Under the pieces are notes generated by a model. That model was not told the origin of the DNA. It searched no databases and saw only the letters and a program-made list of their open reading frames with translations. Both the position numbers and the translations under genes were made by a program. This document shows, piece by piece, positions 1,353 through 23,628 of a DNA stretch of 27,060 nt (within the stretch, counting starts at the first letter, position 1; each line of letters starts with the position of its first letter). The DNA is from a virus (Duplodnaviria > Heunggongvirae > Uroviricota > Caudoviricetes), in the IMG/VR virus record IMGVR_UViG_2681813321_000031; one strand, given 5' to 3'.

Positions 1353-2348
1353 TTACCCAAGCACGCCGGTTGCAAAGGCGTGATCAAGAAAATGAAAAAT
1401 TAAATCAACCTGGGAACCATGCTTTTCTTCGAATGCCAGCGGATCCGCATGAAGCTCGTTGTGATGTTCCCGACACAGCGGTAGTGTGAAAATATCGTGG
1501 GATTTTGTTCCCATTCCACCCTGACCGTGGCCTATCAGGTGGTGGGCATCATCAGCAGGCTTTCCGCAACATGCGCACGGCTGCGTCTTAACCCAGCGCG
1601 TGTACTTTTCATTAACCCAGCGGCGACGTTTTGGGCGTAACATAAAAGACTCCGGCGACTCCGGATCCACTTTCAGCGCCAGCACCTTTTTCGCCTTATC
1701 CTGGATGATGCTGGTGGCAGTAACCGAAGGCACAAGGTCACTTTCCCGGGTAACAGACGGCACAACAGGCTTCGGTAATCTCAGTGCCTTACGGGCTGCA
1801 CTTTCCGATAAGGCATCCGCCAGATCATTACGAATCAGCCACCAGCACAGTTCCGGCATTGTCACAACGTGACTGTCGTCAAAACCGAGCTCCCGACGCA
1901 CAACAGACAACACCCAGCGGGCACAGTTATCCGTTGCCATTGATTCCAGCCGTTCCGTGAACTGATCGCGCAGCTGGTTATCGCAGTGCCAGCACAGACG
2001 GATCGCGCCCGGAGCGTGTCGCATTGTGGTCATGTTCTCGCTGTGCCAGTTGGAATGAGGCCACTGACAGCCCTTTTCACGAAGTAACCAGCTTTCAAGA
2101 CATTCCACGCCACCAGCACGACGGATCACTGCCTCATTGCGGAACACGGCCCGAACGGCAGGATCATCCGCCAGCGGTTGTGATGCCGCCGGAACGGCAC
2201 CACTGGCAAAAGATGAATAACGTTCCGGCTCAGGCTCCAGCAGGACACGCCCCTGCATAAACAGGGGCATCAGCTCTGAACCGGGCCTGAACAATACGAT
2301 CCCCATACGCGGGGCAATTTCAGGGGTCAGTAGTGCTCTCACGGTCAC
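1353..2348 (-). CDS. DUF968-like prophage protein with C-terminal HNH-type Cys/His motif
   Basis: 331-aa ORF; C-terminus CACCGKPADDAHHLIGHGQGG...LPLCREHHNELH is a CxxC...HH...C..HH HNH-like zinc-finger signature; resembles YdfU-type prophage proteins. The 5' part of the gene lies inside the 7.55-kb repeat unit. Confidence 0.75.
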   Translation of the reverse strand: MTVRALLTPEIAPRMGIVLFRPGSELMPLFMQGRVLLEPEPERYSSFASGAVPAASQPLADDPAVRAVFRNEAVIRRAGGVECLESWLLREKGCQWPHSNWHSENMTTMRHAPGAIRLCWHCDNQLRDQFTERLESMATDNCARWVLSVVRRELGFDDSHVVTMPELCWWLIRNDLADALSESAARKALRLPKPVVPSVTRESDLVPSVTATSIIQDKAKKVLALKVDPESPESFMLRPKRRRWVNEKYTRWVKTQPCACCGKPADDAHHLIGHGQGGMGTKSHDIFTLPLCREHHNELHADPLAFEEKHGSQVDLIFHFLDHAFATGVLG

Positions 2349-2393
2349 CTCAGCGAACGGTATTGCATGAACGCAGAAGAAAAAATTCAGCCA

Positions 2394-2651
2394 TCACGCA
2401 GTAAACTCCTTCACCAGTATTTCAAACTGGCTTACCTGGCCTTCCAGTTCCGCCACGCAATCCACCAGCTCATCCACCGCCTTTTGTGTGCGGTGTTTTG
2501 CCAGCAGCAGATCACGCAGCGCCGGAGTAAGCTGCTTGCGGAGCGTATCCTTTGCCACGCTCGTTTTTTCCATCTGTTCAGCACAACGAAGCATCTCCTG
2601 CGCCTGCCGACGAAGTTGTTCCGGTGAAACAGTGATTGCTCTGTTGTTCAA
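2394..2651 (-). CDS. hypothetical protein (85 aa, predicted helical)
   Basis: ORF overlaps the dnaB-like stop by 4 nt (translational coupling); no family recognised. Confidence 0.55.
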   Translation of the reverse strand: MNNRAITVSPEQLRRQAQEMLRCAEQMEKTSVAKDTLRKQLTPALRDLLLAKHRTQKAVDELVDCVAELEGQVSQFEILVKEFTA

Positions 2652-4048
2652 AATAAACGCTCCGTTTTACTGCCCGACATGCGGTTATTGCTGTATCTGC
2701 GCGGATTGCCCGGCGTCATGGGTGTGGAAAGAACCCGGGCACTCTCCTGGTCCACAGGCAGAAAATGTCCGTTATGAAAACGCCGGTAAATGGTCCCGAG
2801 CGTGCCATTACGCTGTTTCGTGATGTTGATTTCTGCTATGCCTCTGGCCTGAGTTTCCGGGTTGTATACCTCATCCCTGTAAAGCATCAGAATGATGTCG
2901 GCATCCGCCTCGATTTCCCCGGAGTTTTTCAGGTCCGAGTTCATTGGGCGTTTATTGGGTCTGGATTCCACGCCGCGGGAGAGCTGGCTCAGAGCAATCA
3001 GCGGAAAACCGCCGGATTTTGCCAGGCTTTTAAGTCCCTTTGAGATTTCCCCCACAGCAAGGTCGTGACGCCCCGTGCTGCGGGTTTTAATCAGGCCGAG
3101 GTAATCGACCACAACCAGCGCCGTTTCCGGGTGTTTCATCCGGTGGTGCTTCGTGGTTGCACATATCTCATCAATGGTCAGGTTTGCCTGGTCCACCATC
3201 CAGATATTACGCCCCGTCATTCGTCCCACGCCCTGCGAGAAACGCGCCCAGTCTTCATCTTCAAAACGGGCAACAGACTTAAGACGGGATACCGGCATTC
3301 CACCGGCAGCAGACACCATACGTTCACCAATCTGGATGTTCGCCATCTCCATGGTGAACAGAAGCACGCCATGCCCCTGCTCAGTCACCTTGTCGATGAT
3401 GTCCAGCGCAAGTTCGGTTTTCCCCATCGAAGGACGGGCGGCAATGAATACCAGGTCTCCGGGCTCCATACCGCCCGTTTTTGCGTCCAGTTCATCAATA
3501 CCGGTCATCAGCGCCCTGGATTTCTCCAGTCCCTGATTGCGGCATTCAACACGGTCGACCACTTCCGGAAGGACATCATCAATGTGAACCGGCTGAATGA
3601 CGCCCTTTCCGGTCGACAGTGAGGCCATCATGTTCTGCGCATCCTTCAGGGCATCCTCGGCTGCTTCACAGGTATACGCATCACGTAAATTCTGTAATGC
3701 TTCAGTCAGTGTTTTTTCTGCATCGCGCAGTGCGGCATTGCGCCGCAACGCTGCGACATAGTGCTCCAGTGAAGACTTCACCCAGGTTTTGCGTCCGGTG
3801 TCGGTAATCACCGGGGCAAGTTCCGGCATCTCATTGCACAGCAGTACGGGGTCAATGACGCCGAATATGCGAGCCTGTCTGCAAATCCCCGCGTAAATAT
3901 CCCGGTACTGACGCACAAAAAATACATCCGCCGGAAGTGTGGCCAGAATATCCATCACTTCCGGATCGGCCCCACGCAGAAAAAACGCACCGATGACAGC
4001 GCCTTCCAGGTCATCGTTACGCCATGCCGGGGTGTTCTGGCTGGTCAT
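2648..4048 (-). CDS. DnaB-family replicative DNA helicase
   Basis: 466 aa; Walker A GARPSMGKTELALDI, FTMEMANIQ and SQLSRGVESR regions match the DnaB RecA-like domain; 4-nt overlap with the upstream loader gene. Confidence 0.95.
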   Translation of the reverse strand: MTSQNTPAWRNDDLEGAVIGAFFLRGADPEVMDILATLPADVFFVRQYRDIYAGICRQARIFGVIDPVLLCNEMPELAPVITDTGRKTWVKSSLEHYVAALRRNAALRDAEKTLTEALQNLRDAYTCEAAEDALKDAQNMMASLSTGKGVIQPVHIDDVLPEVVDRVECRNQGLEKSRALMTGIDELDAKTGGMEPGDLVFIAARPSMGKTELALDIIDKVTEQGHGVLLFTMEMANIQIGERMVSAAGGMPVSRLKSVARFEDEDWARFSQGVGRMTGRNIWMVDQANLTIDEICATTKHHRMKHPETALVVVDYLGLIKTRSTGRHDLAVGEISKGLKSLAKSGGFPLIALSQLSRGVESRPNKRPMNSDLKNSGEIEADADIILMLYRDEVYNPETQARGIAEINITKQRNGTLGTIYRRFHNGHFLPVDQESARVLSTPMTPGNPRRYSNNRMSGSKTERLF

Positions 4049-4953
4049 GCGGCAACACCTCCGATACGAGAACGGTAGCTGGGCCAGTTAAACGACAACC
4101 AGTTGCGCCCGCCATCGGTGATCCTGTCGGCAATCCGGGGACTGATGAACGCCCACAATTCTTCCGGTGAAAGGTTGCTGATCAGGATAGTTGGCAAAAT
4201 ACCCTCATACCGGGCATTGATAATTTCCTGCAAAATGGCCATTTCAGCCGCACTGCCAAACTGAACGCCGACTTCGTCGACAATCAGCAAATCCAGTGAC
4301 GCATAATGCTCAATGACGTCATCCGCTGTTTTTTCACTGTCATTCCGCCAGCAGTTTTTCACAGCCCGGGTAAGGCGCATCACGTCGGTGATCTCCACAC
4401 TGGCCAGATAGTTACGGATGATGTGTTTTGCCATTGATACCGCCAGATGATTTTTCCCGGTACCGCAACTGCCGGTCATAACAAGACTGGTACCGTTCTC
4501 CAGCATATCTGGCCAGTTCTCCGCATAGCGGCGACAGGCCGCAAGATTTCTGGCTGCGTCAGGATTAACCTCCAGATAATTATCAAACTCGCAGTCCCGA
4601 AAACGCAGAGCAATTCCGGCGTTATCAGTCAGTTCTTCCGCCTTGAGGGACGACAGTTCCATGGTCAAATCACTGGCCTCAGCGATCAAGCAGTCAGGGC
4701 AGCATGAAATTTTTTCTCTGTCCTCGCCATTACGATCGATCCACACCAGTATATGCGTACGATATTTACCGTGTTTTTCGCAATATCCGCGACCTTCACG
4801 CATCAGGCAGGAACGATAAGGCCATGGCTTTTCGCCCTTCTGAGCAAATGCAATCTCTGCCCGTAACTCATCCATTTCTGCCCGTAACTCATCCATTCGC
4901 GCCTGTAGTCTTGTTTGTTTCTCACGTTGGTCAATCGTCATCATCGCTGTCAC
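4045..4953 (-). CDS. DnaC/IstB-like AAA+ helicase loader with N-terminal Cys-rich region
   Basis: 302 aa; Walker A GSCGTGKNHLA, Walker B LLIVDEVG; N-terminal Cys/His cluster (C...CEKHGK...CCPDC). Confidence 0.85.
   Translation of the reverse strand: MTAMMTIDQREKQTRLQARMDELRAEMDELRAEIAFAQKGEKPWPYRSCLMREGRGYCEKHGKYRTHILVWIDRNGEDREKISCCPDCLIAEASDLTMELSSLKAEELTDNAGIALRFRDCEFDNYLEVNPDAARNLAACRRYAENWPDMLENGTSLVMTGSCGTGKNHLAVSMAKHIIRNYLASVEITDVMRLTRAVKNCWRNDSEKTADDVIEHYASLDLLIVDEVGVQFGSAAEMAILQEIINARYEGILPTILISNLSPEELWAFISPRIADRITDGGRNWLSFNWPSYRSRIGGVAA
4858..4899. repeat. 21-bp in-frame tandem duplication inside the loader gene
   Basis: ctgcccgtaactcatccattt / ctgcccgtaactcatccattc; encodes MDELRAE-MDELRAE in the N-terminal coiled region. 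Confidence 0.8.
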
Positions 4954-4954
4954 C

Positions 4955-5947
4955 TCAGAATGTCAATTTGTTACTGGATTTACCGAATTTGTCCGACATG
5001 GCTCCCAGGCCAGCCAGGACATCGACCTGTCGCTGTCGCCCACCTCCGTGAGCGGCTGGCTGTTGCCAGTAATCTTCGAAGTGACGATCGGGTCCAAAGA
5101 ACGTCGCAGCCTGCTTCACGAACTGTGTGCCGATATTTCCTGTAGCACGTACCCAGGCGGCATACCGCTTCACGCCATCAAGCATGGTCTCCGGTTTTAT
5201 TCCCTCCCTGATACGGGCTTTCCAGGCTTTGAAGGCTGCTGACTTGGAATTGCCACCAGCACGTTTGGGATATTCCTGCCAGGCCTGTTCAAATTCCGGT
5301 GAATATTCCTGTCGGGCAGAACGCGCTGGCGCAGACGCGTCAGCGGATGCATCAATAGTGTTTTTAGTCTCCGTTGTAATCTCTGTAGTAATCTCTGTAT
5401 TTGTATCAACATTCGGCGTATCCCCTGTTCCGTTATGACGTCGGGGGGTGTTCCGTTTTAACGTAATAGCTGTATCGCTGATTGCATTATTGCTGTTACT
5501 TTCTGGCGAAACAGAAGAAGGTGTGGTGATGGCCGCAATTGCCTGTGGGTTGATCCCGACAAACAAAATATTGCTGCATTTCACCCCATCGAGCATTTCC
5601 ACCGTGCGTAAATCCAGAGTAATAAACCCTGCATCGCGCAGACGCTTCAGCGCATCTGCGGTTTCCCTTTTCCCGAAACCAAACTGCTCAGCAAACGCCT
5701 GGTAGCTTCTTTGCAGTTTGTCGCCCTGAAAACGCTTGCGATATCCCAGCAACGCTCCGGTGTGCTCATCCCTGACCTCTGTCGGGCGGTACCAGTAAAC
5801 GATCTCTGAAAGCAGAGCGATAGCCGTCGCATCCGGACGCCCACTGGGTAGTCGAATATATTTCCACCAGTTCGCAGGTGTAACATTGCCGGAAATATTA
5901 ATTTGACCAATAGCCATAACTTCCGGTGTGGGGGCGTAACGGCTCAT
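4955..5947 (-). CDS. putative replication initiator (O-like / replisome organizer)
   Basis: 330-aa ORF directly upstream of the loader and helicase genes; conserved N- and C-terminal blocks separated by a low-complexity T/E/I-rich linker. Assignment is by position plus weak motif resemblance. Confidence 0.55.
   Translation of the reverse strand: MSRYAPTPEVMAIGQINISGNVTPANWWKYIRLPSGRPDATAIALLSEIVYWYRPTEVRDEHTGALLGYRKRFQGDKLQRSYQAFAEQFGFGKRETADALKRLRDAGFITLDLRTVEMLDGVKCSNILFVGINPQAIAAITTPSSVSPESNSNNAISDTAITLKRNTPRRHNGTGDTPNVDTNTEITTEITTETKNTIDASADASAPARSARQEYSPEFEQAWQEYPKRAGGNSKSAAFKAWKARIREGIKPETMLDGVKRYAAWVRATGNIGTQFVKQAATFFGPDRHFEDYWQQPAAHGGGRQRQVDVLAGLGAMSDKFGKSSNKLTF
5375..5398. repeat. 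12-bp direct repeat (gtaatctctgta x2) in the initiator linker
   Basis: Encodes TEITTEITTE; candidate iteron-like repeats by analogy with lambda ori lying inside O. Confidence 0.4.
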
Positions 5948-6243
5948 ACAACCTCCTTCCGCGGCATGAGAATTGTGTAGCCACGCGCAGGTTGTAGTCT
6001 GGCTTTTGCATCAATAGTAAGCGTTGCAATTTTTCGGATATGAAGATAACCAGCTCTTTCCAGTGCCAGGGTTTCCCTGAATATCGCTTGCTTAGAACAA
6101 CAGCAGAAATCAGCAAGCACCTGATGATCAATAACTCTCTCGCCTTCACCGTCTGAAGAACCCGACATCAAAACACGCAACATAATCAGGCGCTGAATCG
6201 GGTTATCGAAAGCACATCCGCACACAAACTGAAAACAGTTCAC
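5944..6243 (-). CDS. hypothetical protein, possible winged-helix DNA-binding
   Basis: 99-aa ORF coupled to the initiator start by a 4-nt overlap. Confidence 0.45.
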   Translation of the reverse strand: MNCFQFVCGCAFDNPIQRLIMLRVLMSGSSDGEGERVIDHQVLADFCCCSKQAIFRETLALERAGYLHIRKIATLTIDAKARLQPARGYTILMPRKEVV

Positions 6244-6464
6244 GCCACACCTCCCAGACGCTTAAACATTTTTCCAGACAGAAATACCGCCAGAGGGTAA
6301 CTGATGGTGTAGCTACGCCCCTGTAGTTCGCACACGACTTTCTGGCTTTCAGCGTTGACTAGGCAAACCCGCAGAACGTGACCGTTGCTGGTGGCGAACC
6401 ACTGCCCCACACGGGGGCAACGGTTGTATCGGTGATACAGGGAATTAACGATGTGGCGGATCAT
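6240..6464 (-). CDS. hypothetical protein (74 aa)
   Basis: ORF in the operon, 4-nt overlap with the downstream gene. Confidence 0.4.
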   Translation of the reverse strand: MIRHIVNSLYHRYNRCPRVGQWFATSNGHVLRVCLVNAESQKVVCELQGRSYTISYPLAVFLSGKMFKRLGGVA

Positions 6465-6655
6465 GGACGCACCTCCACCGTAGTTACGTATTTAACCGGG
6501 CTACCTTTCATTGAGATGGTTTCACACATCTCTGCCGCTTTCAGTTCCGCTGTTTTTCTGGATTTATAGCGACGGTGCCAGACAGATACATCCGTGCGAA
6601 CTGATACATCGTTTCTGTATTCCGTAGTGGAGATGATGATTTCGTAACTAATCAT
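6461..6655 (-). CDS. hypothetical protein (64 aa)
   Basis: ORF in the operon, coupled to the neighbours. Confidence 0.4.
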   Translation of the reverse strand: MISYEIIISTTEYRNDVSVRTDVSVWHRRYKSRKTAELKAAEMCETISMKGSPVKYVTTVEVRP

Positions 6656-7203
6656 GGGCGAACCTCCTTGTCAGAACCATTCAGCCTGGAATCAACAAGT
6701 GCAGCGCCAAAAACAGCATCACCAACACGGTCGTACAGTTTGCTAGCCAGCGGAGATTCAACGGCCTTAAGCATTGGATAAAGCTGGCTTGTCCAGATTT
6801 GATGGATTTCACGCAAATGCAGGTATACGCCTCTGGCGTTTCGTGCGACAGCTGACATATCAACCGCGTCAGCACCAGATAAATTCTTCTCCATCTGGTT
6901 AAAGGCGTTGATGTATGCCTCTTTGAACCGGGCTGCACGTTTGCCAGTAAAGCCCATAGCAAGGAACGCGAAGCCATCGCGGGTGATTTGATAGCAAGGT
7001 AGTTTGCGGCCTGTGCAATCGGTGTAATCACTGGGCTGAAAATTCAGCTCAGTGAATTCAACAGAGCACTCAAGCGTCTGGATTTTTTGAATAACGTTTT
7101 TGTGCTGCTTGCAGAAATATTCGGCAACGGCCAAAGAAGAGGTAACAGCCTTCCCATGGATAACATCAATTTTAGGGTGAGTTTGGGTAGGGGTGGTTGC
7201 CAT
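6652..7203 (-). CDS. rha: phage regulatory protein Rha (core, 183 aa from ATG 7201-7203; track ORF extends to 7500)
   Basis: VTSSLAVAEYF...FTELNF...GRKLPCYQITRDGFAFLAMGFTGKRAARFKEAYINAFN matches the Rha N-terminal domain. ATG at 7201-7203 has a GAGGA Shine-Dalgarno 7 nt upstream. The longer 282-aa ORF reads through an upstream terminator hairpin and the structured element. Confidence 0.8.
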   Translation of the reverse strand: MATTPTQTHPKIDVIHGKAVTSSLAVAEYFCKQHKNVIQKIQTLECSVEFTELNFQPSDYTDCTGRKLPCYQITRDGFAFLAMGFTGKRAARFKEAYINAFNQMEKNLSGADAVDMSAVARNARGVYLHLREIHQIWTSQLYPMLKAVESPLASKLYDRVGDAVFGAALVDSRLNGSDKEVRP

Positions 7204-7260
7204 AGTGACATCCTCATGTGCGAATTTTGAAAACTCACCACATGGGACGCCAATCACAGA

Positions 7261-7339
7261 GGTGGTGAGACGTACAGGGTTGGCGTAACCGGTCGCACAT
7301 GACCCCGGCGCATCTTTCGATGCCCCTGCACGCCCCACC
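7261..7339 (-). ncRNA. candidate structured cis-regulatory RNA in the rha leader (P1 16-bp helix enclosing P2 and P3 hairpins)
   Basis: Minus-strand GGUGGGGCGUGCAGGG (7339-7324) pairs with CCCUGUACGUCUCACC (7279-7264): 13 Watson-Crick + 3 G-U pairs, which become A-C mismatches on the plus strand. P2 GCAUC-GAAA-GAUGC at 7323-7310. Copy 2 has the same P1 and a P2 of CCAAC-UUCG-GUUGG. Confidence 0.45.
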
Positions 7340-7366
7340 ATAATTTGGATGTGAGGAAACGTGCGC

Positions 7367-7389
7367 AAAAAAACCGCTGAAGCGCGGTT
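7367..7389 (-). terminator. intrinsic terminator-like hairpin + U7 between the rha-like gene and rha
   Basis: Minus-strand AACCGC-GCUUCA-GCGGUU followed by UUUUU; stem and U tract are conserved in copy 2 while the loop and flanks diverge. Confidence 0.45.
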
Positions 7390-7583
7390 ATGCGCATGTG
7401 CGAATTTCAGGACGCCAATCCCGGCACCCGCTTTATAAGGTGCGGAGACAGTGTAACGTCCCGAAATTGCAGAATCAATATTTGGTCTTGAAATGATCAT
7501 ATAGCTGCTGATATCTTTAGAACTGTTCTTGGATGTTTCGGAGCCGTTTTATGCGAAACAGCTCCCCGTTATTGATGTTGAGT

Positions 7584-7609
7584 GAGCCGGGTTACTCCCG
7601 GCTTTTTTT
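7584..7609 (+). terminator. plus-strand intrinsic terminator overlapping the stop codon of the 235-aa gene
   Basis: GAGCCGGG-UUACU-CCCGGCUU plus a 7-T tract on the plus strand only (no U tract on the minus strand); implies a plus-strand transcript convergent with the operon. Confidence 0.45.
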
Positions 7610-8316
7610 CACCGCTGCCAACCAATAACCTGAAATAACCCCATTTTCGGGTGATACCAGCGAGTCCCTCGCGGTTCTGCTTCCTCCATAACCCGATAAA
7701 AAGCAGCCATAAACGGTTCCACAGCAACAATTGCGCGACGTGACAACAATCCGTCCGGCGTCATGAACTCATGGGTGTCTGTAGGAATTTGATAGGCGTT
7801 CACCAGATTGCGGCATTTATCATCTGACAAACCGGTTTTTGCTTTCAGTTGGCGATATCCGGCATAGCCCTCACGAATAGTGCCCTTTTTAATTTGCTCG
7901 ACTGTTTCAGCAACGTGGCTGACTTTTTCTTCCACCTGAGTGATCCGTTTCTGTTGGCGAACGGCTTCAAGAGCCATCGCGGCAACCATTTCGATTTCGC
8001 TCATTGGCTTACGGATCTGTTCTTCCAGTTCGCGCCAGCGATCTACCAGGCGAGCAGTGAATTCAGGACAGAGCTGTGCGACGACAATGATGCTGTCGCG
8101 CTTACCTCGTTCACCTTCGAATACATACGCGCTAGAAAATCGGCGAGGCCCAAGTGATTGTTTATTCTCAATTTCCACAGTCTGTGGAAATTGGATGATT
8201 CCCTTTTTAGCCAGTGTTTCAATAGTTCTCTTAACACTATCTGGTCGGCTTCCCACCAGCTCTGCGATCTCAACGCTGGTCATGGATGCTTTGCCGTTAA
8301 AAATTGCGGTGTTCAT
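7609..8316 (-). CDS. Rha/antirepressor-like phage regulatory protein (235 aa) at the cII position
   Basis: N-terminal TSVEIAELVGSRPDSVKRTIETL resembles the Rha-type N-terminal DNA-binding motif; ATGA overlap with the upstream Cro-like gene. Confidence 0.55.
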   Translation of the reverse strand: MNTAIFNGKASMTSVEIAELVGSRPDSVKRTIETLAKKGIIQFPQTVEIENKQSLGPRRFSSAYVFEGERGKRDSIIVVAQLCPEFTARLVDRWRELEEQIRKPMSEIEMVAAMALEAVRQQKRITQVEEKVSHVAETVEQIKKGTIREGYAGYRQLKAKTGLSDDKCRNLVNAYQIPTDTHEFMTPDGLLSRRAIVAVEPFMAAFYRVMEEAEPRGTRWYHPKMGLFQVIGWQR

Positions 8317-8540
8317 TGTTGGTCTCCTGTGGGCTTGTCATCTTCTGTATTCGCTAGACTTGGGTGTGTATATGGAATGCTCGGATCCAGATGACAAAGA
8401 ATGGCAACATCCTCCGGAACACCTCGCGTTTTCCACTTTCCAACACCTTGACTGCCACGAGGCCTTCCTTTCTTTGGGAACCTGCGACCAATAGCGGCAT
8501 TGGTTTTAAATTGAATTTTTAATATTTCATAAAGGGTCAT
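8313..8540 (-). CDS. Cro/DicC-like small DNA-binding protein (75 aa)
   Basis: First gene divergent from cI across an operator-rich intergenic region; small and basic; ...FKTNAAIGRRF... resembles the Cro/DicC HTH region. Largely positional inference. Confidence 0.5.
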   Translation of the reverse strand: MTLYEILKIQFKTNAAIGRRFPKKGRPRGSQGVGKWKTRGVPEDVAILCHLDPSIPYTHPSLANTEDDKPTGDQQ

Positions 8541-8651
8541 TCTTTAGTCTCACACCAGATACTTTGTTATTCAACGATGTTAACCACAGGAATCCAAAGT
8601 ATCAAGAAATTCTGTTACTTTAGTATCAACAGCCATGAGAGGAGAAGAAAA
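8541..8651. promoter_or_regulatory. OR-like operator/promoter region between the cro-like gene and cI
   Basis: Three copies of the core AGTATCA / GATACT (8558-8564 inverted; 8598-8604 and 8622-8628 direct) in 110 bp; AGAGGAGAA Shine-Dalgarno before the cI ATG. Confidence 0.5.
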
Positions 8652-9308
8652 ATGAAGTCTTTAGGTGAACGTCTCATCAACGCACGGCAAAAAGCTGGGT
8701 TAACACAAGATGCGTTGGCTAAAAAAGCTGGGATCACCAGAGTTGCAATCAGTAAAGCCGAGCAAGGCCTTACAAAAAGTTTCAACGGTGACACCCTTTT
8801 TAAAGTTGCAGCTGCACTGCGGTGTTCACCGCAGTGGCTTCAGAACGGAGATGAAAAAGATAAGCATTGGGAAAATAATGTTAAGAGCTGCCCACAGAGA
8901 GACACAGCACACTCTTACCCTGTAATTAACTGGGTTCAGGCAGGATTATTCGCAACTTCTGGTGATGACTACAACATGTATGATCAGGATAATTGGAGGC
9001 ATTCTGTAAAATACGCTGGTGAGAGGGGGTTCTGGCTGGAAGTGCACGGAGACTCAATGACTTCGCCCGTAGGAATAACATTTCCTGAAGGAATGTCGAT
9101 CCTTGTCAACCCAGATAAAGAAGTTTTTTCAGGGTGTTACGTCATCGCCAGAAAAAAATCTACCAATGAAGCAACATTCAAAAAATATATTTCTGACATG
9201 GGAAAGGCGTTTCTAAAGCCCCTTAATCCACAATATCCAATCATAGAAATGGACAATGATTGCGAAATAGTAGGTGTTGTGGTTGATGCCAGGTGGGATA
9301 TTTTCTGA
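8652..9308 (+). CDS. CI-like prophage repressor (XRE HTH + S24 LexA-like peptidase domain)
   Basis: MKSLGERLINARQKAGLTQDALAKKAGITRVAISKAEQG is an HTH; C-terminal ...LEVHGDSMTSP...CYVIARKK... shows the S24 Ser/Lys dyad pattern; strong RBS. Track ORF starts 75 nt earlier at an alternative codon. Confidence 0.9.
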   Translation: MKSLGERLINARQKAGLTQDALAKKAGITRVAISKAEQGLTKSFNGDTLFKVAAALRCSPQWLQNGDEKDKHWENNVKSCPQRDTAHSYPVINWVQAGLFATSGDDYNMYDQDNWRHSVKYAGERGFWLEVHGDSMTSPVGITFPEGMSILVNPDKEVFSGCYVIARKKSTNEATFKKYISDMGKAFLKPLNPQYPIIEMDNDCEIVGVVVDARWDIF

Positions 9309-9411
9309 CCAGACACAAAACACAAAAAGAAACCAAAGTATCAAAAATCACTTGCCACACCTTGATACCTTAGTTACCATAAAACAAAGTTCGTAACTGA
9401 GGTATCATCCC
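9309..9411. promoter_or_regulatory. OL-like operator/promoter region downstream of cI
   Basis: The same GTATCA core recurs three times (9337-9343, 9363-9369 inverted, 9401-9407), forming an inverted pair AAGTATCAA...TTGATACCT. Confidence 0.4.
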
Positions 9412-9771
9412 ATGATCAATAAAGCTACAACTCTTGACTGTCTCGAAGAACTGAAAAACCTCGGCAGCCTCATTACACTAATAGCAAAAGCAACACCTGA
9501 TGCTACGCTCTCTAGCGATATAGAGTCATGCGCAGGACTGGCATGGGATATGACAAATAGCATATCCAGAAAGCTATCGTCAGCAATGCTTTTACAGAAC
9601 AAAAATTCTGCAATCAACAACCGTCTTCGCACCCAACGCGAAGCCTGCGGCTTAACAACCGCCGAACTCGCCAGGCTGCTCGATCTCGATGAAGAAATTA
9701 TCATCCAGTGGGAGAGCGGAGAGTATGAACCAACTATCAGTATGCTTATCCCACTGGCAAAAGATGAATAA
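9412..9771 (+). pseudogene. 3'-truncated copy of the XRE HTH gene, cut at the tandem-duplication junction
   Basis: Identical to the first 116 codons of 16969..17472, then diverges after the microhomology ccactggcaaa (9751-9761) into sequence from the DUF968 gene, ending ...LAKDE. Confidence 0.6.
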
Positions 9772-9944
9772 CGTTCCGGCTCAGGCTCCAGCAGGACACG
9801 CCCCTGCATAAACAGGGGCATCAGCTCTGAACCGGGCCTGAACAATACGATCCCCATACGCGGGGCAATTTCAGGGGTCAGTAGTGCTCTCACGGTCACC
9901 TCAGCGAACGGTATTGCATGAACGCAGAAGAAAAAATTCAGCCA

Positions 9945-10202
9945 TCACGCAGTAAACTCCTTCACCAGTATTTCAAACTGGCTTACCTGGCCTTCCAGTT
10001 CCGCCACGCAATCCACCAGCTCATCCACCGCCTTTTGTGTGCGGTGTTTTGCCAGCAGCAGATCACGCAGCGCCGGAGTAAGCTGCTTGCGGAGCGTATC
10101 CTTTGCCACGCTCGTTTTTTCCATCTGTTCAGCACAACGAAGCATCTCCTGCGCCTGCCGACGAAGTTGTTCCGGTGAAACAGTGATTGCTCTGTTGTTC
10201 AA
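9945..10202 (-). CDS. hypothetical protein (85 aa), copy B
   Basis: Identical to 2394..2651. Confidence 0.55.
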   Translation of the reverse strand: MNNRAITVSPEQLRRQAQEMLRCAEQMEKTSVAKDTLRKQLTPALRDLLLAKHRTQKAVDELVDCVAELEGQVSQFEILVKEFTA

Positions 10203-11599
10203 AATAAACGCTCCGTTTTACTGCCCGACATGCGGTTATTGCTGTATCTGCGCGGATTGCCCGGCGTCATGGGTGTGGAAAGAACCCGGGCACTCTCCTG
10301 GTCCACAGGCAGAAAATGTCCGTTATGAAAACGCCGGTAAATGGTCCCGAGCGTGCCATTACGCTGTTTCGTGATGTTGATTTCTGCTATGCCTCTGGCC
10401 TGAGTTTCCGGGTTGTATACCTCATCCCTGTAAAGCATCAGAATGATGTCGGCATCCGCCTCGATTTCCCCGGAGTTTTTCAGGTCCGAGTTCATTGGGC
10501 GTTTATTGGGTCTGGATTCCACGCCGCGGGAGAGCTGGCTCAGAGCAATCAGCGGAAAACCGCCGGATTTTGCCAGGCTTTTAAGTCCCTTTGAGATTTC
10601 CCCCACAGCAAGGTCGTGACGCCCCGTGCTGCGGGTTTTAATCAGGCCGAGGTAATCGACCACAACCAGCGCCGTTTCCGGGTGTTTCATCCGGTGGTGC
10701 TTCGTGGTTGCACATATCTCATCAATGGTCAGGTTTGCCTGGTCCACCATCCAGATATTACGCCCCGTCATTCGTCCCACGCCCTGCGAGAAACGCGCCC
10801 AGTCTTCATCTTCAAAACGGGCAACAGACTTAAGACGGGATACCGGCATTCCACCGGCAGCAGACACCATACGTTCACCAATCTGGATGTTCGCCATCTC
10901 CATGGTGAACAGAAGCACGCCATGCCCCTGCTCAGTCACCTTGTCGATGATGTCCAGCGCAAGTTCGGTTTTCCCCATCGAAGGACGGGCGGCAATGAAT
11001 ACCAGGTCTCCGGGCTCCATACCGCCCGTTTTTGCGTCCAGTTCATCAATACCGGTCATCAGCGCCCTGGATTTCTCCAGTCCCTGATTGCGGCATTCAA
11101 CACGGTCGACCACTTCCGGAAGGACATCATCAATGTGAACCGGCTGAATGACGCCCTTTCCGGTCGACAGTGAGGCCATCATGTTCTGCGCATCCTTCAG
11201 GGCATCCTCGGCTGCTTCACAGGTATACGCATCACGTAAATTCTGTAATGCTTCAGTCAGTGTTTTTTCTGCATCGCGCAGTGCGGCATTGCGCCGCAAC
11301 GCTGCGACATAGTGCTCCAGTGAAGACTTCACCCAGGTTTTGCGTCCGGTGTCGGTAATCACCGGGGCAAGTTCCGGCATCTCATTGCACAGCAGTACGG
11401 GGTCAATGACGCCGAATATGCGAGCCTGTCTGCAAATCCCCGCGTAAATATCCCGGTACTGACGCACAAAAAATACATCCGCCGGAAGTGTGGCCAGAAT
11501 ATCCATCACTTCCGGATCGGCCCCACGCAGAAAAAACGCACCGATGACAGCGCCTTCCAGGTCATCGTTACGCCATGCCGGGGTGTTCTGGCTGGTCAT
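10199..11599 (-). CDS. DnaB-family replicative helicase, copy B
   Basis: Identical protein to 2648..4048. Confidence 0.95.
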   Translation of the reverse strand: MTSQNTPAWRNDDLEGAVIGAFFLRGADPEVMDILATLPADVFFVRQYRDIYAGICRQARIFGVIDPVLLCNEMPELAPVITDTGRKTWVKSSLEHYVAALRRNAALRDAEKTLTEALQNLRDAYTCEAAEDALKDAQNMMASLSTGKGVIQPVHIDDVLPEVVDRVECRNQGLEKSRALMTGIDELDAKTGGMEPGDLVFIAARPSMGKTELALDIIDKVTEQGHGVLLFTMEMANIQIGERMVSAAGGMPVSRLKSVARFEDEDWARFSQGVGRMTGRNIWMVDQANLTIDEICATTKHHRMKHPETALVVVDYLGLIKTRSTGRHDLAVGEISKGLKSLAKSGGFPLIALSQLSRGVESRPNKRPMNSDLKNSGEIEADADIILMLYRDEVYNPETQARGIAEINITKQRNGTLGTIYRRFHNGHFLPVDQESARVLSTPMTPGNPRRYSNNRMSGSKTERLF

Positions 11600-12504
11600 G
11601 CGGCAACACCTCCGATACGAGAACGGTAGCTGGGCCAGTTAAACGACAACCAGTTGCGCCCGCCATCGGTGATCCTGTCGGCAATCCGGGGACTGATGAA
11701 CGCCCACAATTCTTCCGGTGAAAGGTTGCTGATCAGGATAGTTGGCAAAATACCCTCATACCGGGCATTGATAATTTCCTGCAAAATGGCCATTTCAGCC
11801 GCACTGCCAAACTGAACGCCGACTTCGTCGACAATCAGCAAATCCAGTGACGCATAATGCTCAATGACGTCATCCGCTGTTTTTTCACTGTCATTCCGCC
11901 AGCAGTTTTTCACAGCCCGGGTAAGGCGCATCACGTCGGTGATCTCCACACTGGCCAGATAGTTACGGATGATGTGTTTTGCCATTGATACCGCCAGATG
12001 ATTTTTCCCGGTACCGCAACTGCCGGTCATAACAAGACTGGTACCGTTCTCCAGCATATCTGGCCAGTTCTCCGCATAGCGGCGACAGGCCGCAAGATTT
12101 CTGGCTGCGTCAGGATTAACCTCCAGATAATTATCAAACTCGCAGTCCCGAAAACGCAGAGCAATTCCGGCGTTATCAGTCAGTTCTTCCGCCTTGAGGG
12201 ACGACAGTTCCATGGTCAAATCACTGGCCTCAGCGATCAAGCAGTCAGGGCAGCATGAAATTTTTTCTCTGTCCTCGCCATTACGATCGATCCACACCAG
12301 TATATGCGTACGATATTTACCGTGTTTTTCGCAATATCCGCGACCTTCACGCATCAGGCAGGAACGATAAGGCCATGGCTTTTCGCCCTTCTGAGCAAAT
12401 GCAATCTCTGCCCGTAACTCATCCATTTCTGCCCGTAACTCATCCATTCGCGCCTGTAGTCTTGTTTGTTTCTCACGTTGGTCAATCGTCATCATCGCTG
12501 TCAC
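11596..12504 (-). CDS. DnaC/IstB-like helicase loader, copy B
   Basis: Identical protein to 4045..4953. Confidence 0.85.
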   Translation of the reverse strand: MTAMMTIDQREKQTRLQARMDELRAEMDELRAEIAFAQKGEKPWPYRSCLMREGRGYCEKHGKYRTHILVWIDRNGEDREKISCCPDCLIAEASDLTMELSSLKAEELTDNAGIALRFRDCEFDNYLEVNPDAARNLAACRRYAENWPDMLENGTSLVMTGSCGTGKNHLAVSMAKHIIRNYLASVEITDVMRLTRAVKNCWRNDSEKTADDVIEHYASLDLLIVDEVGVQFGSAAEMAILQEIINARYEGILPTILISNLSPEELWAFISPRIADRITDGGRNWLSFNWPSYRSRIGGVAA

Positions 12505-12505
12505 C

Positions 12506-13498
12506 TCAGAATGTCAATTTGTTACTGGATTTACCGAATTTGTCCGACATGGCTCCCAGGCCAGCCAGGACATCGACCTGTCGCTGTCGCCCACCTCCGT
12601 GAGCGGCTGGCTGTTGCCAGTAATCTTCGAAGTGACGATCGGGTCCAAAGAACGTCGCAGCCTGCTTCACGAACTGTGTGCCGATATTTCCTGTAGCACG
12701 TACCCAGGCGGCATACCGCTTCACGCCATCAAGCATGGTCTCCGGTTTTATTCCCTCCCTGATACGGGCTTTCCAGGCTTTGAAGGCTGCTGACTTGGAA
12801 TTGCCACCAGCACGTTTGGGATATTCCTGCCAGGCCTGTTCAAATTCCGGTGAATATTCCTGTCGGGCAGAACGCGCTGGCGCAGACGCGTCAGCGGATG
12901 CATCAATAGTGTTTTTAGTCTCCGTTGTAATCTCTGTAGTAATCTCTGTATTTGTATCAACATTCGGCGTATCCCCTGTTCCGTTATGACGTCGGGGGGT
13001 GTTCCGTTTTAACGTAATAGCTGTATCGCTGATTGCATTATTGCTGTTACTTTCTGGCGAAACAGAAGAAGGTGTGGTGATGGCCGCAATTGCCTGTGGG
13101 TTGATCCCGACAAACAAAATATTGCTGCATTTCACCCCATCGAGCATTTCCACCGTGCGTAAATCCAGAGTAATAAACCCTGCATCGCGCAGACGCTTCA
13201 GCGCATCTGCGGTTTCCCTTTTCCCGAAACCAAACTGCTCAGCAAACGCCTGGTAGCTTCTTTGCAGTTTGTCGCCCTGAAAACGCTTGCGATATCCCAG
13301 CAACGCTCCGGTGTGCTCATCCCTGACCTCTGTCGGGCGGTACCAGTAAACGATCTCTGAAAGCAGAGCGATAGCCGTCGCATCCGGACGCCCACTGGGT
13401 AGTCGAATATATTTCCACCAGTTCGCAGGTGTAACATTGCCGGAAATATTAATTTGACCAATAGCCATAACTTCCGGTGTGGGGGCGTAACGGCTCAT
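12506..13498 (-). CDS. putative replication initiator (O-like), copy B
   Basis: Identical protein to 4955..5947. Confidence 0.55.
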   Translation of the reverse strand: MSRYAPTPEVMAIGQINISGNVTPANWWKYIRLPSGRPDATAIALLSEIVYWYRPTEVRDEHTGALLGYRKRFQGDKLQRSYQAFAEQFGFGKRETADALKRLRDAGFITLDLRTVEMLDGVKCSNILFVGINPQAIAAITTPSSVSPESNSNNAISDTAITLKRNTPRRHNGTGDTPNVDTNTEITTEITTETKNTIDASADASAPARSARQEYSPEFEQAWQEYPKRAGGNSKSAAFKAWKARIREGIKPETMLDGVKRYAAWVRATGNIGTQFVKQAATFFGPDRHFEDYWQQPAAHGGGRQRQVDVLAGLGAMSDKFGKSSNKLTF

Positions 13499-13794
13499 AC
13501 AACCTCCTTCCGCGGCATGAGAATTGTGTAGCCACGCGCAGGTTGTAGTCTGGCTTTTGCATCAATAGTAAGCGTTGCAATTTTTCGGATATGAAGATAA
13601 CCAGCTCTTTCCAGTGCCAGGGTTTCCCTGAATATCGCTTGCTTAGAACAACAGCAGAAATCAGCAAGCACCTGATGATCAATAACTCTCTCGCCTTCAC
13701 CGTCTGAAGAACCCGACATCAAAACACGCAACATAATCAGGCGCTGAATCGGGTTATCGAAAGCACATCCGCACACAAACTGAAAACAGTTCAC
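13495..13794 (-). CDS. hypothetical protein, copy B
   Basis: Identical to 5944..6243. Confidence 0.45.
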   Translation of the reverse strand: MNCFQFVCGCAFDNPIQRLIMLRVLMSGSSDGEGERVIDHQVLADFCCCSKQAIFRETLALERAGYLHIRKIATLTIDAKARLQPARGYTILMPRKEVV

Positions 13795-14015
13795 GCCACA
13801 CCTCCCAGACGCTTAAACATTTTTCCAGACAGAAATACCGCCAGAGGGTAACTGATGGTGTAGCTACGCCCCTGTAGTTCGCACACGACTTTCTGGCTTT
13901 CAGCGTTGACTAGGCAAACCCGCAGAACGTGACCGTTGCTGGTGGCGAACCACTGCCCCACACGGGGGCAACGGTTGTATCGGTGATACAGGGAATTAAC
14001 GATGTGGCGGATCAT
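13791..14015 (-). CDS. hypothetical protein, copy B
   Basis: Identical to 6240..6464. Confidence 0.4.
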   Translation of the reverse strand: MIRHIVNSLYHRYNRCPRVGQWFATSNGHVLRVCLVNAESQKVVCELQGRSYTISYPLAVFLSGKMFKRLGGVA

Positions 14016-14206
14016 GGACGCACCTCCACCGTAGTTACGTATTTAACCGGGCTACCTTTCATTGAGATGGTTTCACACATCTCTGCCGCTTTCAGTTCCG
14101 CTGTTTTTCTGGATTTATAGCGACGGTGCCAGACAGATACATCCGTGCGAACTGATACATCGTTTCTGTATTCCGTAGTGGAGATGATGATTTCGTAACT
14201 AATCAT
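14012..14206 (-). CDS. hypothetical protein, copy B
   Basis: Identical to 6461..6655. Confidence 0.4.
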   Translation of the reverse strand: MISYEIIISTTEYRNDVSVRTDVSVWHRRYKSRKTAELKAAEMCETISMKGSPVKYVTTVEVRP

Positions 14207-14754
14207 GGGCGAACCTCCTTGTCAGAACCATTCAGCCTGGAATCAACAAGTGCAGCGCCAAAAACAGCATCACCAACACGGTCGTACAGTTTGCTAGCCA
14301 GCGGAGATTCAACGGCCTTAAGCATTGGATAAAGCTGGCTTGTCCAGATTTGATGGATTTCACGCAAATGCAGGTATACGCCTCTGGCGTTTCGTGCGAC
14401 AGCTGACATATCAGACGTATCGGCACCTGATAAACTCTTCTCCATCAGGTTAAAGGCGTTGATGTATGCCTCTTTGAACCGGGCAGCACGTTTACCAGTG
14501 AAGCCCATGGCAAGGAACGCGAAGCCATCGCGGGTGATTTGATAGCAAGGTAGTTTGCGGCCTGATGCGTCGGTGTATTCACTTAACACAAAATTGTGTT
14601 CAGTAAATTCAGCGGAACATTCGAGGTTTCTAATTCTATCTAAAACCCGCTCATGCCGTTTAGTAAAGTAATTAGCTACTGCAAGAGATGTGGTGACAAC
14701 GCGACCATTGATAATCGTGATTTCAGGGTGAGATTGGGTTGGGAGAGTAGTCAT
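14203..14754 (-). CDS. rha: phage regulatory protein Rha, divergent allele (core from ATG 14752-14754; track ORF extends to 15057)
   Basis: C-terminal half identical to copy A; the N-terminal Rha domain carries many substitutions (e.g. KQHKNVIQKIQTL vs KRHERVLDRIRNL). Confidence 0.8.
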   Translation of the reverse strand: MTTLPTQSHPEITIINGRVVTTSLAVANYFTKRHERVLDRIRNLECSAEFTEHNFVLSEYTDASGRKLPCYQITRDGFAFLAMGFTGKRAARFKEAYINAFNLMEKSLSGADTSDMSAVARNARGVYLHLREIHQIWTSQLYPMLKAVESPLASKLYDRVGDAVFGAALVDSRLNGSDKEVRP

Positions 14755-14814
14755 GGTGACAGCCCCTATGTTGAATTCAATGAACTCACCACCAAGGCTT
14801 TCCACGACCATATA

Positions 14815-14893
14815 GGTGGTGAGACGTACAGGGGTGGAAATACCGGTCAACATAGAACCCGGCCCAACCGAAGTTGGCCCTGCACGCCCCACC
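14815..14893 (-). ncRNA. candidate structured RNA element, copy B (covarying with 7261..7339)
   Basis: P1 strands identical to copy A; P2 is CCAAC-UUCG-GUUGG (plus strand 14864-14877); P3 retains the CCGG...CCGG pairing with a diverged loop. Confidence 0.45.
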
Positions 14894-14924
14894 ATAATTT
14901 GGGCGTAACGATGCTCATGACACG

Positions 14925-14946
14925 AAAAAACCGCATGAGCGCGGTT
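14925..14946 (-). terminator. intrinsic terminator-like hairpin + U tract, copy B
   Basis: Minus-strand AACCGC-GCUCAU-GCGGUU followed by UUUU; same stem as copy A, different loop. Confidence 0.4.
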
Positions 14947-15140
14947 GTGCTCTATATTGAATTTCGGGTTTCCACGCCCGGCACCCGCTTTATAAGGTGC
15001 CTGAGCAGTGTAACGTCCCGGAATTGCAGAATCAATATTTGGTCTTGAAATGATCATATAGCTGCTGATATCTTTAGAACTGTTCTTGGATGTTTCGGAG
15101 CCGTTTTATGCGAAACAGCTCCCCGTTATTGATGTTGAGT

Positions 15141-15166
15141 GAGCCGGGTTACTCCCGGCTTTTTTT
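15141..15166 (+). terminator. plus-strand intrinsic terminator, copy B
   Basis: Identical to 7584..7609. Confidence 0.45.
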
Positions 15167-15873
15167 CACCGCTGCCAACCAATAACCTGAAATAACCCCA
15201 TTTTCGGGTGATACCAGCGAGTCCCTCGCGGTTCTGCTTCCTCCATAACCCGATAAAAAGCAGCCATAAACGGTTCCACAGCAACAATTGCGCGACGTGA
15301 CAACAATCCGTCCGGCGTCATGAACTCATGGGTGTCTGTAGGAATTTGATAGGCGTTCACCAGATTGCGGCATTTATCATCTGACAAACCGGTTTTTGCT
15401 TTCAGTTGGCGATATCCGGCATAGCCCTCACGAATAGTGCCCTTTTTAATTTGCTCGACTGTTTCAGCAACGTGGCTGACTTTTTCTTCCACCTGAGTGA
15501 TCCGTTTCTGTTGGCGAACGGCTTCAAGAGCCATCGCGGCAACCATTTCGATTTCGCTCATTGGCTTACGGATCTGTTCTTCCAGTTCGCGCCAGCGATC
15601 TACCAGGCGAGCAGTGAATTCAGGACAGAGCTGTGCGACGACAATGATGCTGTCGCGCTTACCTCGTTCACCTTCGAATACATACGCGCTAGAAAATCGG
15701 CGAGGCCCAAGTGATTGTTTATTCTCAATTTCCACAGTCTGTGGAAATTGGATGATTCCCTTTTTAGCCAGTGTTTCAATAGTTCTCTTAACACTATCTG
15801 GTCGGCTTCCCACCAGCTCTGCGATCTCAACGCTGGTCATGGATGCTTTGCCGTTAAAAATTGCGGTGTTCAT
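15166..15873 (-). CDS. Rha/antirepressor-like regulatory protein (235 aa), copy B
   Basis: Identical to 7609..8316. Confidence 0.55.
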   Translation of the reverse strand: MNTAIFNGKASMTSVEIAELVGSRPDSVKRTIETLAKKGIIQFPQTVEIENKQSLGPRRFSSAYVFEGERGKRDSIIVVAQLCPEFTARLVDRWRELEEQIRKPMSEIEMVAAMALEAVRQQKRITQVEEKVSHVAETVEQIKKGTIREGYAGYRQLKAKTGLSDDKCRNLVNAYQIPTDTHEFMTPDGLLSRRAIVAVEPFMAAFYRVMEEAEPRGTRWYHPKMGLFQVIGWQR

Positions 15874-16097
15874 TGTTGGTCTCCTGTGGGCTTGTCATCT
15901 TCTGTATTCGCTAGACTTGGGTGTGTATATGGAATGCTCGGATCCAGATGACAAAGAATGGCAACATCCTCCGGAACACCTCGCGTTTTCCACTTTCCAA
16001 CACCTTGACTGCCACGAGGCCTTCCTTTCTTTGGGAACCTGCGACCAATAGCGGCATTGGTTTTAAATTGAATTTTTAATATTTCATAAAGGGTCAT
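15870..16097 (-). CDS. Cro/DicC-like protein, copy B
   Basis: Identical to 8313..8540. Confidence 0.5.
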   Translation of the reverse strand: MTLYEILKIQFKTNAAIGRRFPKKGRPRGSQGVGKWKTRGVPEDVAILCHLDPSIPYTHPSLANTEDDKPTGDQQ

Positions 16098-16208
16098 TCT
16101 TTAGTCTCACACCAGATACTTTGTTATTCAACGATGTTAACCACAGGAATCCAAAGTATCAAGAAATTCTGTTACTTTAGTATCAACAGCCATGAGAGGA
16201 GAAGAAAA
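16098..16208. promoter_or_regulatory. OR-like operator region, copy B
   Basis: Identical to 8541..8651. Confidence 0.5.
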
Positions 16209-16865: not shown

Positions 16866-16968
16866 CCAGACACAAAACACAAAAAGAAACCAAAGTATCA
16901 AAAATCACTTGCCACACCTTGATACCTTAGTTACCATAAAACAAAGTTCGTAACTGAGGTATCATCCC
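16866..16968. promoter_or_regulatory. OL-like operator region, copy B
   Basis: Identical to 9309..9411. Confidence 0.4.
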
Positions 16969-22291: not shown

Positions 22292-22295
22292 CCAC

Positions 22296-22538: not shown

Positions 22539-22550
22539 AGAATGAATAAA

Positions 22551-23623: not shown

Positions 23624-23628
23624 ATGGA

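Follow-up and report, generated by a model that had tools for sequence, protein, structure and literature searches.

A divergent patch in a prophage repeat as a probable RNA control cassette for a Rha-family gene

Introduction

The 27,060-nucleotide stretch of caudoviricete DNA analyzed here (IMG/VR record IMGVR_UViG_2681813321_000031; hereafter the window) holds a head-to-tail repeat from a lambdoid prophage, whose two copies differ only in a short, densely divergent patch at rha, a gene for a Rha-family regulator or antirepressor. The closest described counterparts of this patch are the immI operon of P1 and P7 and the isrK locus of prophage Gifsy-1. In P1 and P7, the C4 RNA is freed from its precursor by RNase P. 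Passages in two papers (PMC12197685, PMC8198154, citing Citron and Schuster 1990) describe C4 as pairing around the ribosome binding site and blocking ant, and the same passages ascribe the heteroimmunity of P1 and P7 to allelic differences in C4. Both the 'c4 antisense RNA' and the 'c4-a1b1' motif were listed by Weinberg et al. 2010 (PMC2864571). The facts on P1 immI used in this work are taken from the literature; positions 20–45 kb of P1 do not include immI.

In Gifsy-1, the promoter PisrK drives isrK-orf45-anrP, with anrP untranslated, and processing of the orf45 region yields STnc1160, an RNA of ~80 nt (Hershko-Shalev et al. 2016, PMC4825925). When short IsrK is provided in trans, AnrP translation rises more than 100-fold, with compensatory mutants backing the pairing, and the isrK locus contributes to prophage induction (PMC4825925). 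The same authors named the SeqA RNA of P4 a structural homologue of IsrK (PMC4825925). Here we propose, with a probability of roughly 80%, that the divergent patch is a cassette for RNA control of an antirepressor-type gene, comparable in kind to P1/P7 immI and Gifsy-1 isrK and set in a lambdoid early-right operon.

Results

RNA elements of the divergent patch

The two repeat copies (2200–9761 and 9751–17318; hereafter copies A and B) align at 98.0% identity with a period of 7551/7557, as determined by self-BLAST and global alignment, and base-by-base alignment confines all internal differences to 6863–7464 in copy A and 14414–15021 in copy B. The patch contains 133 substitutions plus 24 indel columns, and copy B is a net 6 bp longer there, while the remaining ~6.95 kb of the unit has zero differences and the two mismatches at 9760–9761 are merely the repeat end; such clustering is far beyond chance. 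A sequence-only reading of the stretch had described copies identical over about 7 kb with dense divergence in this interval and a 6-bp net length difference, and both alignment methods confirm that description. The same reading took the patch to be the Rha N-terminal domain and its leader. The N-terminal domain does lie inside (rha codons 1–114 of copy A, 6863–7203), but the leader actually holds two Rfam RNA genes.

These genes exceed the Rfam gathering scores of 50 bits for isrK (RF01394) and 45 bits for C4 (RF01695), and they lie on the minus strand, in the order IsrK, C4, target leader, rha. The IsrK small RNA (sRNA), which corresponds to the c4-a1b1 motif, occupies 7367–7443 in copy A (62.3 bits, model positions 1–77) and comprises a hairpin at 7424–7443, box a1 (TTGGCGT, 7412–7418) in a small hairpin loop, box b1 (TCGCACATG, 7395–7403) and an intrinsic terminator at 7367–7389, for which the terminator scan gives a hairpin at 7389–7372 followed by a T-run. 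Its counterpart in copy B (14924–15000, minus strand, 61.6 bits) has box a1 GTGGAAA at 14969–14975, box b1 TCAATATAG at 14952–14960 and a terminator at 14925–14946. Upstream of IsrK, a putative promoter was read visually from the sequence at 7450–7478 in copy A, with a –35 element TTGATT (7473–7478), a 17-nt spacer and a –10 element TACACT (7450–7455), and at 15007–15035 in copy B, again on the minus strand; the two versions are 91% identical, and dense divergence begins at the predicted transcription start. The position of this candidate corresponds to that of PisrK in Gifsy-1 (PMC4825925).

The C4 antisense RNA matches over the full model length (1–87) in both copies, at 7258–7345 with 75.1 bits in copy A and at 14812–14899 with 82.4 bits in copy B. 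Its predicted fold is unusually stable, with minimum free energies of –46.5 kcal/mol (z = –5.1) for A and –44.5 kcal/mol (z = –5.2) for B. Two recognition segments are characteristic of each copy: (i) a b′ loop, TCATGTGCGA at 7293–7302 in A and CTATGTTGA at 14847–14855 in B, and (ii) an a′ joint, ACGCCAA at 7280–7286 in A and TTTCCAC at 14834–14840 in B. Between C4 and rha, the target leader (7204–7257 in A, 14755–14811 in B) carries the second pair of boxes. In copy A these are a2 (TTGGCGT, 7247–7253) and b2 (TCGCACATGA, 7214–7223), the latter overlapping the rha Shine-Dalgarno sequence GAGGA at 7211–7215; in copy B they are a2 (GTGGAAA, 14799–14805) and b2 (TCAACATAG, 14766–14774), which overlaps the Shine-Dalgarno sequence AGGGG at 14763–14767.

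Each copy's segments and boxes are complementary to one another. The a′ of copy A pairs exactly with TTGGCGT, present once on either side of C4, and b′ (TCATGTGCGA) complements TCGCACATG(A) at two sites, the downstream one adjoining the Shine-Dalgarno sequence. In copy B, a′ likewise complements GTGGAAA at two sites, and b′ (CTATGTTGA) pairs with TCAACATAG downstream and, through one G–U pair, with TCAATATAG upstream. The a′/a2 and b′/b2 pairs thus span 7 + 10 nt in A and 7 + 9 nt in B. In sequence, structure and target boxes, the cassette has the defining features of the C4 and isrK families.

A further conserved element lies directly downstream of box a2, as GGTGGTGAG at 14785–14793 in B and TGTGGTGAG at ~7234–7242 in A, and GGTGGTGAG is complementary to CUCACCACC, the 3′ side of the outer C4 stem. 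In an unprocessed transcript, pairing between the two could form an alternative hairpin with a2 in its loop, and this hairpin may match the alternative structures A and B of Gifsy-1.

Allele comparison

Identity between the copies varies along the cassette. Upstream of the –35 element the copies are 100% identical, and beyond the promoter identity drops to 73% in IsrK, 57% in the spacer, 80% in C4 and 64% in the a2–b2 leader, then 76% in rha codons 1–114, before returning to 100% over the rest of rha. Within C4, 17 of the 18 differences belong to hairpin 1 (where they are compensatory, apart from a GAAA to UUCG loop exchange), the b′ loop or the a′ joint, and neither the 17-bp outer stem nor the stem of hairpin 2 has changed. 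Recognition segments and boxes change jointly, each set matching in cis within its own copy. Because a′, b′, a1, b1, a2 and b2 all differ between the copies, A and B form two self-consistent alleles that are predicted to be orthogonal, that is, non-cross-reacting. Summed loop–box duplex energies follow the same pattern, at –26.1 kcal/mol for A on A and –20.4 kcal/mol for B on B, compared to –15.4 kcal/mol for A on B and –8.3 kcal/mol for B on A. These values were computed on loops and boxes alone, since folding C4 against the whole leader opens intramolecular structure and is uninformative.

The substitutions themselves are spread evenly over the bases (A 35, C 26, G 36, T 36; 65 transitions and 68 transversions), which bears out the earlier observation that they are not restricted to adenines. 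This even spectrum excludes a diversity-generating retroelement, and we consider it almost certain that neither such an element nor a local mutator made the patch. A reverse-transcriptase gene fragment does occur in the window, at 22583–23623; it is the sole reverse transcriptase present and belongs to a truncated group II intron maturase within an insertion sequence (IS) element. The patch also contains the 24 indel columns noted above, and both alleles already exist at 100% identity in many other genomes.

Cassette diversity among prophages

Searching IMG/VR for exact matches to the invariant outer stem of C4 returned at least 120 prophage contigs (loci L001–L120). The listed loci fall into at least 26 a′/b′ classes, with at least 10 distinct a′ 7-mers and at least 23 distinct b′ loops. 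Among the matches listed, 26 of 26 classes have an exact complement of a′ no more than 25 nt downstream from C4 (a2) and a further one in the IsrK portion (a1), and the helices formed by b1 with b′ are 6–12 nt long. Mean b′:b2 helix length over the same 26 classes is 10.1 nt for cognate pairs versus 6.4 nt for non-cognate pairs; none of 20,000 permuted C4–target pairings reached the observed values (0/20000), and the cognate target ranks first by energy in 24 of the 26. Covariation was counted by an anchored script, a MAFFT alignment of the 26 class representatives having gapped the a2 box in some sequences. Complementarity thus covaries strongly across three separated sites for each determinant.

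The two determinants are also found in new combinations. At least 11 loci (e.g. L011 and L021) join the a′ of allele A to the b′ of allele B with all four boxes matching, which indicates that the a and b determinants reassort independently between prophages. Since a1/a′/a2 are spread over ~170 nt and b1/b′/b2 over ~190 nt, and all sites must match, the cassette is exchanged as a block. The module is present in 161 phage records, including Stx, mEp460-like, cdtI, phiP27, SfV-like and Salmonella phages. Where two modules share a genome, three of the four pairs listed in the IMG/VR sample carry different alleles. A broader proposal, to which we give rather less than an even chance, is that enterobacterial lambdoid prophages hold a natural repertoire of at least 26 C4/IsrK specificities built on one scaffold, its promoter and 17-bp C4 outer stem staying constant, with a and b reassorting independently yet matched at three sites each, under selection against cross-talk among prophages that share a host and with IsrK serving as an anti-antisense decoy for C4.

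Allele A and allele B both occur outside this record. Allele A is found at 100% identity over the whole patch in five IMG/VR prophages, and at 100% over 921 bp including the flanks in at least 14 complete E. coli genomes. Allele B is found at 100% identity in three IMG/VR prophages. Copy B matches L049 with 0 mismatches; L049 is a prophage with one copy of the unit and has the window's flanks on both sides. The prophage integrated at mlrA in E. coli O111:H2 12A, which has one unit and intact xis and int, is also 100% identical to copy B; strain 12A is not among the allele-A matches listed for complete E. coli genomes. The backbone of both copies is that of this single-copy allele-B type (L049, 12A), and natural backbones carrying A or B are 99.8–100% alike. 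The backbones of natural allele-A carriers depart from that of the window at single-nucleotide polymorphisms (SNPs) as close as 6832 and 7612 (L043) or 6477 and 8055 (L072), and the pair at 6832 and 7612 limits the transferred tract to ~0.6–0.8 kb, at most ~780 bp. If the record is taken at face value, copy A is an allele-B-type backbone with an allele-A cassette. Elsewhere in the window, an AGATGA hexamer repeat at 18325–18336 is 6 bp shorter in the near-identical L093 and 12 bp shorter in L049.

Coding interpretation and neighboring genes

The rha gene encodes 183 residues on the minus strand in both copies, at 6652–7203 in A (start codon at 7203) and 14203–14754 in B (start ATG at 14754). 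The two proteins are 73% identical over residues 1–114 and 100% identical over residues 115–183. They match the Pfam family Phage_pRha (E = 1e-32), and in PHROG they match anti-repressor families weakly, beside transcriptional-regulator families.

A longer reading frame extends through the patch (6652–7500 in A, 14203–15057 in B) and remains open in both alleles despite the indels, raising the question of whether the patch is instead the protein divergence of a long 'Ash-Rha' of 282/284 residues, in which the RNA motifs would be incidental. The Pfam family Phage_ASH (PF10554) matches residues 16–110 of this product, and PHROG 821 and the NCBI annotation pipeline PGAP both give the long form; the sequence-only reading had likewise extended the gene up to 7500. 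We judge this very improbable and read Rha as 183 residues, the long frame crossing both RNA genes as well as the terminator. Its ATG at 7500 is located 5′ of the putative IsrK promoter, the two Rfam RNA genes and the intrinsic terminator coincide with the 'Ash' stretch, and nucleotide changes there keep the RNA stems and box complementarity. According to a summary in PMC12197685, the Gifsy-1 study reported orf45 to be conserved in nucleotides and variable in amino acids. In addition, several alleles have stop codons after 15–45 codons. We therefore read the Phage_ASH match, which covers the first ~100 residues, as a probable translation of the IsrK and C4 RNA genes. PGAP names an 'ash family protein' at homologous sites, and the Ash family may consist largely of translated RNA genes. 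The family is named after the ash mutants of P4.

A shorter frame also enters rha. An open reading frame (ORF) begins at an AUG on the 5′ side of the outer C4 stem and continues in frame into rha without a stop, over 46 codons in A (7341–7203) and 47 in B (14895–14754), on the minus strand. The same frame leads into rha in most listed alleles, among them one whose b′ loop has gained 3 nt by insertion, and in a minority of them it stops after 15–45 codons, as does orf45 of Gifsy-1.

The surrounding genes form the early-right operon of a lambdoid prophage on the minus strand, with cI on the plus strand at 8577–9308. Beyond cI, the order is a cro-like gene, a Roi/Ant-like gene, rha, small ORFs, an O-like initiator and a DnaC-like loader, followed by DnaB, a DUF968/HNH gene, RusA and a Q-like gene. 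The Roi/Ant-like gene (235 residues; Roi in phage PhiR49_2) is a second, distant Rha/Ant-like gene, located directly upstream of the cassette at 7609–8316 and 15166–15873 on the minus strand, with a strong terminator-like hairpin after it at 7584–7604. The prophage thus has two consecutive antirepressor-like genes, just the second of which would be under C4/IsrK control.

Origin of the tandem arrangement

The repeat unit occupies 2200–9750 in copy A, running from the 5′ part of the DUF968 gene through DnaB, the DnaC-like loader, the O-like initiator, small ORFs, rha, the Roi/Ant-like gene, the cro-like gene and cI to a truncated helix-turn-helix (HTH) gene, and 9751–17307 in copy B. The window corresponds to positions 154–27213 of contig CYBF01000044.1 (45,267 bp) from the scaffolded draft GCA_001285025.1, and this draft contains a second 'tandem repeat', of 2.87 kb, in which 21333–24200 and 24201–27060 are 100% identical, the self-alignment pairing 21333–24192 with 24201–27060. 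Both of its copies contain the same scaffold gap of 21 N (22551–22571 and 25419–25439). No biological process can duplicate a scaffold gap; the assembler must have circled twice, which makes the 2.87-kb repeat an assembly loop. On its path lies a multicopy IS3-family element that a group II intron interrupts. The 3′ part of this intron (22572–24200, again 25440–27060) includes domains V/VI (RF00029, 64.9 bits, 23627–23713) and a truncated reverse transcriptase–maturase ORF of 346 residues, and it is inserted in the 3′ part of the IS3-family transposase gene (rve, 23776–24192). This intron-in-IS arrangement is known in other E. coli genomes, and here it replaces the xis-int end found beside mlrA in relatives.

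The junction between copies A and B, at 9750/9751, contains no Ns and shows an exact 11-bp microhomology, CCACTGGCAAA, at 9751–9761 and likewise at 2200–2210 and 17308–17318. Single-copy genomes have CCACTGGCAAA within the DUF968 gene as well as within the HTH gene, the two parental sites of the junction. The junction shortens the HTH gene to 119 residues (9412–9771, plus strand), compared to 167 residues at 16969–17472, and leaves about 50 initial codons of the DUF968/HNH gene joined to sequence unrelated to it (9405–9899, minus strand). An exact search for the junction found it absent from IMG/VR, GTDB representative genomes and JGI metagenomes, none of 5426 complete E. coli genomes spans it in a BLAST search with the junction region, and the junction-specific 119-residue product is on record in this one assembly alone.

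These results bear on whether the arrangement is real, and we see a nearly even chance that it is an assembly artefact, in which a graph cycle was unrolled and a collapsed 7-kb consensus was used twice, with one patch allele per pass. Two related prophages, a duplication together with a third prophage, or a mixed population could in that case have been the source of the alleles. The draft has N-runs and its neighboring repeat shows assembly looping; perfect identity outside the patch is expected of a collapsed consensus, and the junction and its protein are confined to this assembly among the collections searched. The closest complete genome, O111:H2 12A, has one copy, with allele B, and the occurrence of allele A with identical flanks in at least 14 complete genomes means that a second prophage could have supplied it. 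However, a junction without Ns and with an 11-bp microhomology is typical of real illegitimate recombination and difficult for a de Bruijn graph with k > 11 to produce, and the consensus equals one natural backbone (L049) exactly, without a mixture of SNPs.

The same microhomology would fit a real, recent tandem duplication of the immunity/replication block, followed by replacement of one cassette by gene conversion from a related prophage or an infecting phage, an origin that we regard as unlikely. Both copies have the allele-B-type backbone, allele A occurs at 100% identity in prophages of differing backbone with a tract of at most ~780 bp, and the conserved promoter-like element and C-terminal part of Rha provide flanking homology for such an exchange, which the mixed a′(A)/b′(B) loci, at least 11 in number, show to occur. 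Against this, short reads cannot phase a 7.5-kb repeat, and the adjacent loop artefact lowers trust in the record; no independent assembly searched contains the junction, and tandem duplications are unstable in RecA+ cells. Still more doubtful, in our estimate, is an origin without gene conversion, in which two related phages, in tandem or as a concatemer, were joined HTH-to-DUF968 by a microhomology-mediated deletion or unequal exchange. The join of mid-HTH gene to the 5′ part of DUF968 through 11 bp, with the units in direct order, would suit this origin, as would the 99.8–100% likeness of A and B backbones and the prevalence of differing alleles (3/4) among the listed same-genome pairs. It requires phages identical over 7 kb, unless consensus collapse hid SNPs, and the caveats of short-read phasing and of the loop artefact apply here too. 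The remaining probability goes to other origins of the arrangement.

The sequence-only reading had offered allelic exchange or a merged assembly as alternatives, and both become more specific here, the former through the alleles present elsewhere at 100% identity and the latter through the duplicated N-gap. Its premise that the copies, being otherwise identical, are of recent origin is unsafe, because collapsed repeats in a short-read scaffold are identical by construction. The tandem arrangement of A and B is provisional, as is the assignment of each allele to its copy.

Discussion

The elements of the patch suggest how rha might be controlled. The conserved putative promoter on the minus strand would start a transcript that mostly stops at the intrinsic terminator, giving a short IsrK with a1 and b1, whereas read-through would produce the ~88-nt C4, then a2 and b2, then rha. 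C4 is predicted to expose a′ (7 nt) and b′ (9–10 nt) as single strands that would pair with a2 and b2; since b2 overlaps the Shine-Dalgarno sequence of rha, this pairing would block rha translation. IsrK bears the same boxes and may titrate C4 or remodel the leader, switching rha on, after which Rha would act as an antirepressor-like inducer. The RNA family matches, the box complementarity and its covariation are observed here, and we infer repression and activation, as well as orthogonality in vivo and the antirepressor activity of Rha. A decoy role for IsrK would reconcile the P1 model, in which C4 represses, with the Gifsy-1 model, in which IsrK activates.

Several points weigh against an RNA control cassette of this kind. 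The promoter-like element matches only 8 of 12 consensus positions and therefore falls below the cut-off of the promoter scan and is absent from its output. Rha-family proteins are not proven antirepressors, and the Pfam search returned no domain for the C-terminal half of Rha. The non-cognate energy of A on B (–15.4 kcal/mol) is not negligible, so that some cross-talk is possible. The locus has neither an icd-like gene, unlike P1, nor a separate orf45, unlike Gifsy-1, and our interpretation combines two separately published models, that of P1 (repression by C4) and that of Gifsy-1 (activation by IsrK through alternative folds). Finally, the interpretation is drawn from sequence.

If the patch is such a cassette, its divergence represents the replacement of co-adapted RNA recognition sites that are inherited together, as opposed to random mosaicism in a protein gene. 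The cassettes probably decide which co-resident prophages silence or trigger each other's antirepressor, which is relevant to SOS-independent induction in polylysogenic pathogenic E. coli, including strains with Stx phages, many of which have the module. Should the tandem arrangement prove true, one prophage would carry two orthogonal RNA-gated induction switches. Two lessons concern annotation and assembly: (i) pipelines translate C4/IsrK RNA genes as 'Ash' or long 'Rha' proteins, and (ii) 'tandem duplications' in scaffolded drafts should not be taken as biology without reads.

Among known systems, the immI region of P22 (sar, arc/mnt, ant) also holds off the antirepressor of a lambdoid phage partly by a small antisense RNA. 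In that region, however, sar is a cis-antisense RNA from the opposite strand without a C4-type fold, and control is exerted mainly by Arc and Mnt; nothing in the window matches P22 immI, for which no specific test was run. The immunity system of P4 (CI RNA, seqA, seqC) resembles the cassette in that a processed leader RNA pairs with boxes up- and downstream of itself, but CI acts by terminating transcription of replication genes, not by covering an antirepressor's ribosome binding site.

Gifsy-1 shares the isrK family and its position upstream of an antirepressor-type gene in a lambdoid prophage, as well as a short terminated sRNA, read-through into a structured region of ~80 nt and complementarity of the sRNA to that region. 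The C4-region ORF is in frame into rha here, whereas Gifsy-1 has a separate 45-codon ORF coupled to anrP, and the cassette lies between roi/cro and the replication genes here but beside antQ in Gifsy-1; for the present locus, the comparison is one of sequence only. P1/P7 immI (a1 b1 – c4 – a2 b2 – icd – ant1/2) shares the C4 Rfam family, the duplication of boxes upstream, the pairing of two segments with two ribosome-binding-site boxes, and alleles of short segments that set specificity. The P1 and P7 alleles differ at far fewer positions than A and B. P1 is a plasmid prophage with C1, whereas the present locus belongs to a lambdoid prophage with a LexA-like cI, and a Rha-family gene is targeted directly here, without icd or P1 Ant. 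The cassette would work like P1/P7 immI and Gifsy-1 isrK yet differs from the P1 operon: it is a known kind of regulatory cassette, and the diversity of its specificities on a constant scaffold and the possible co-residence of orthogonal alleles are population-level leads as opposed to a new mechanism.

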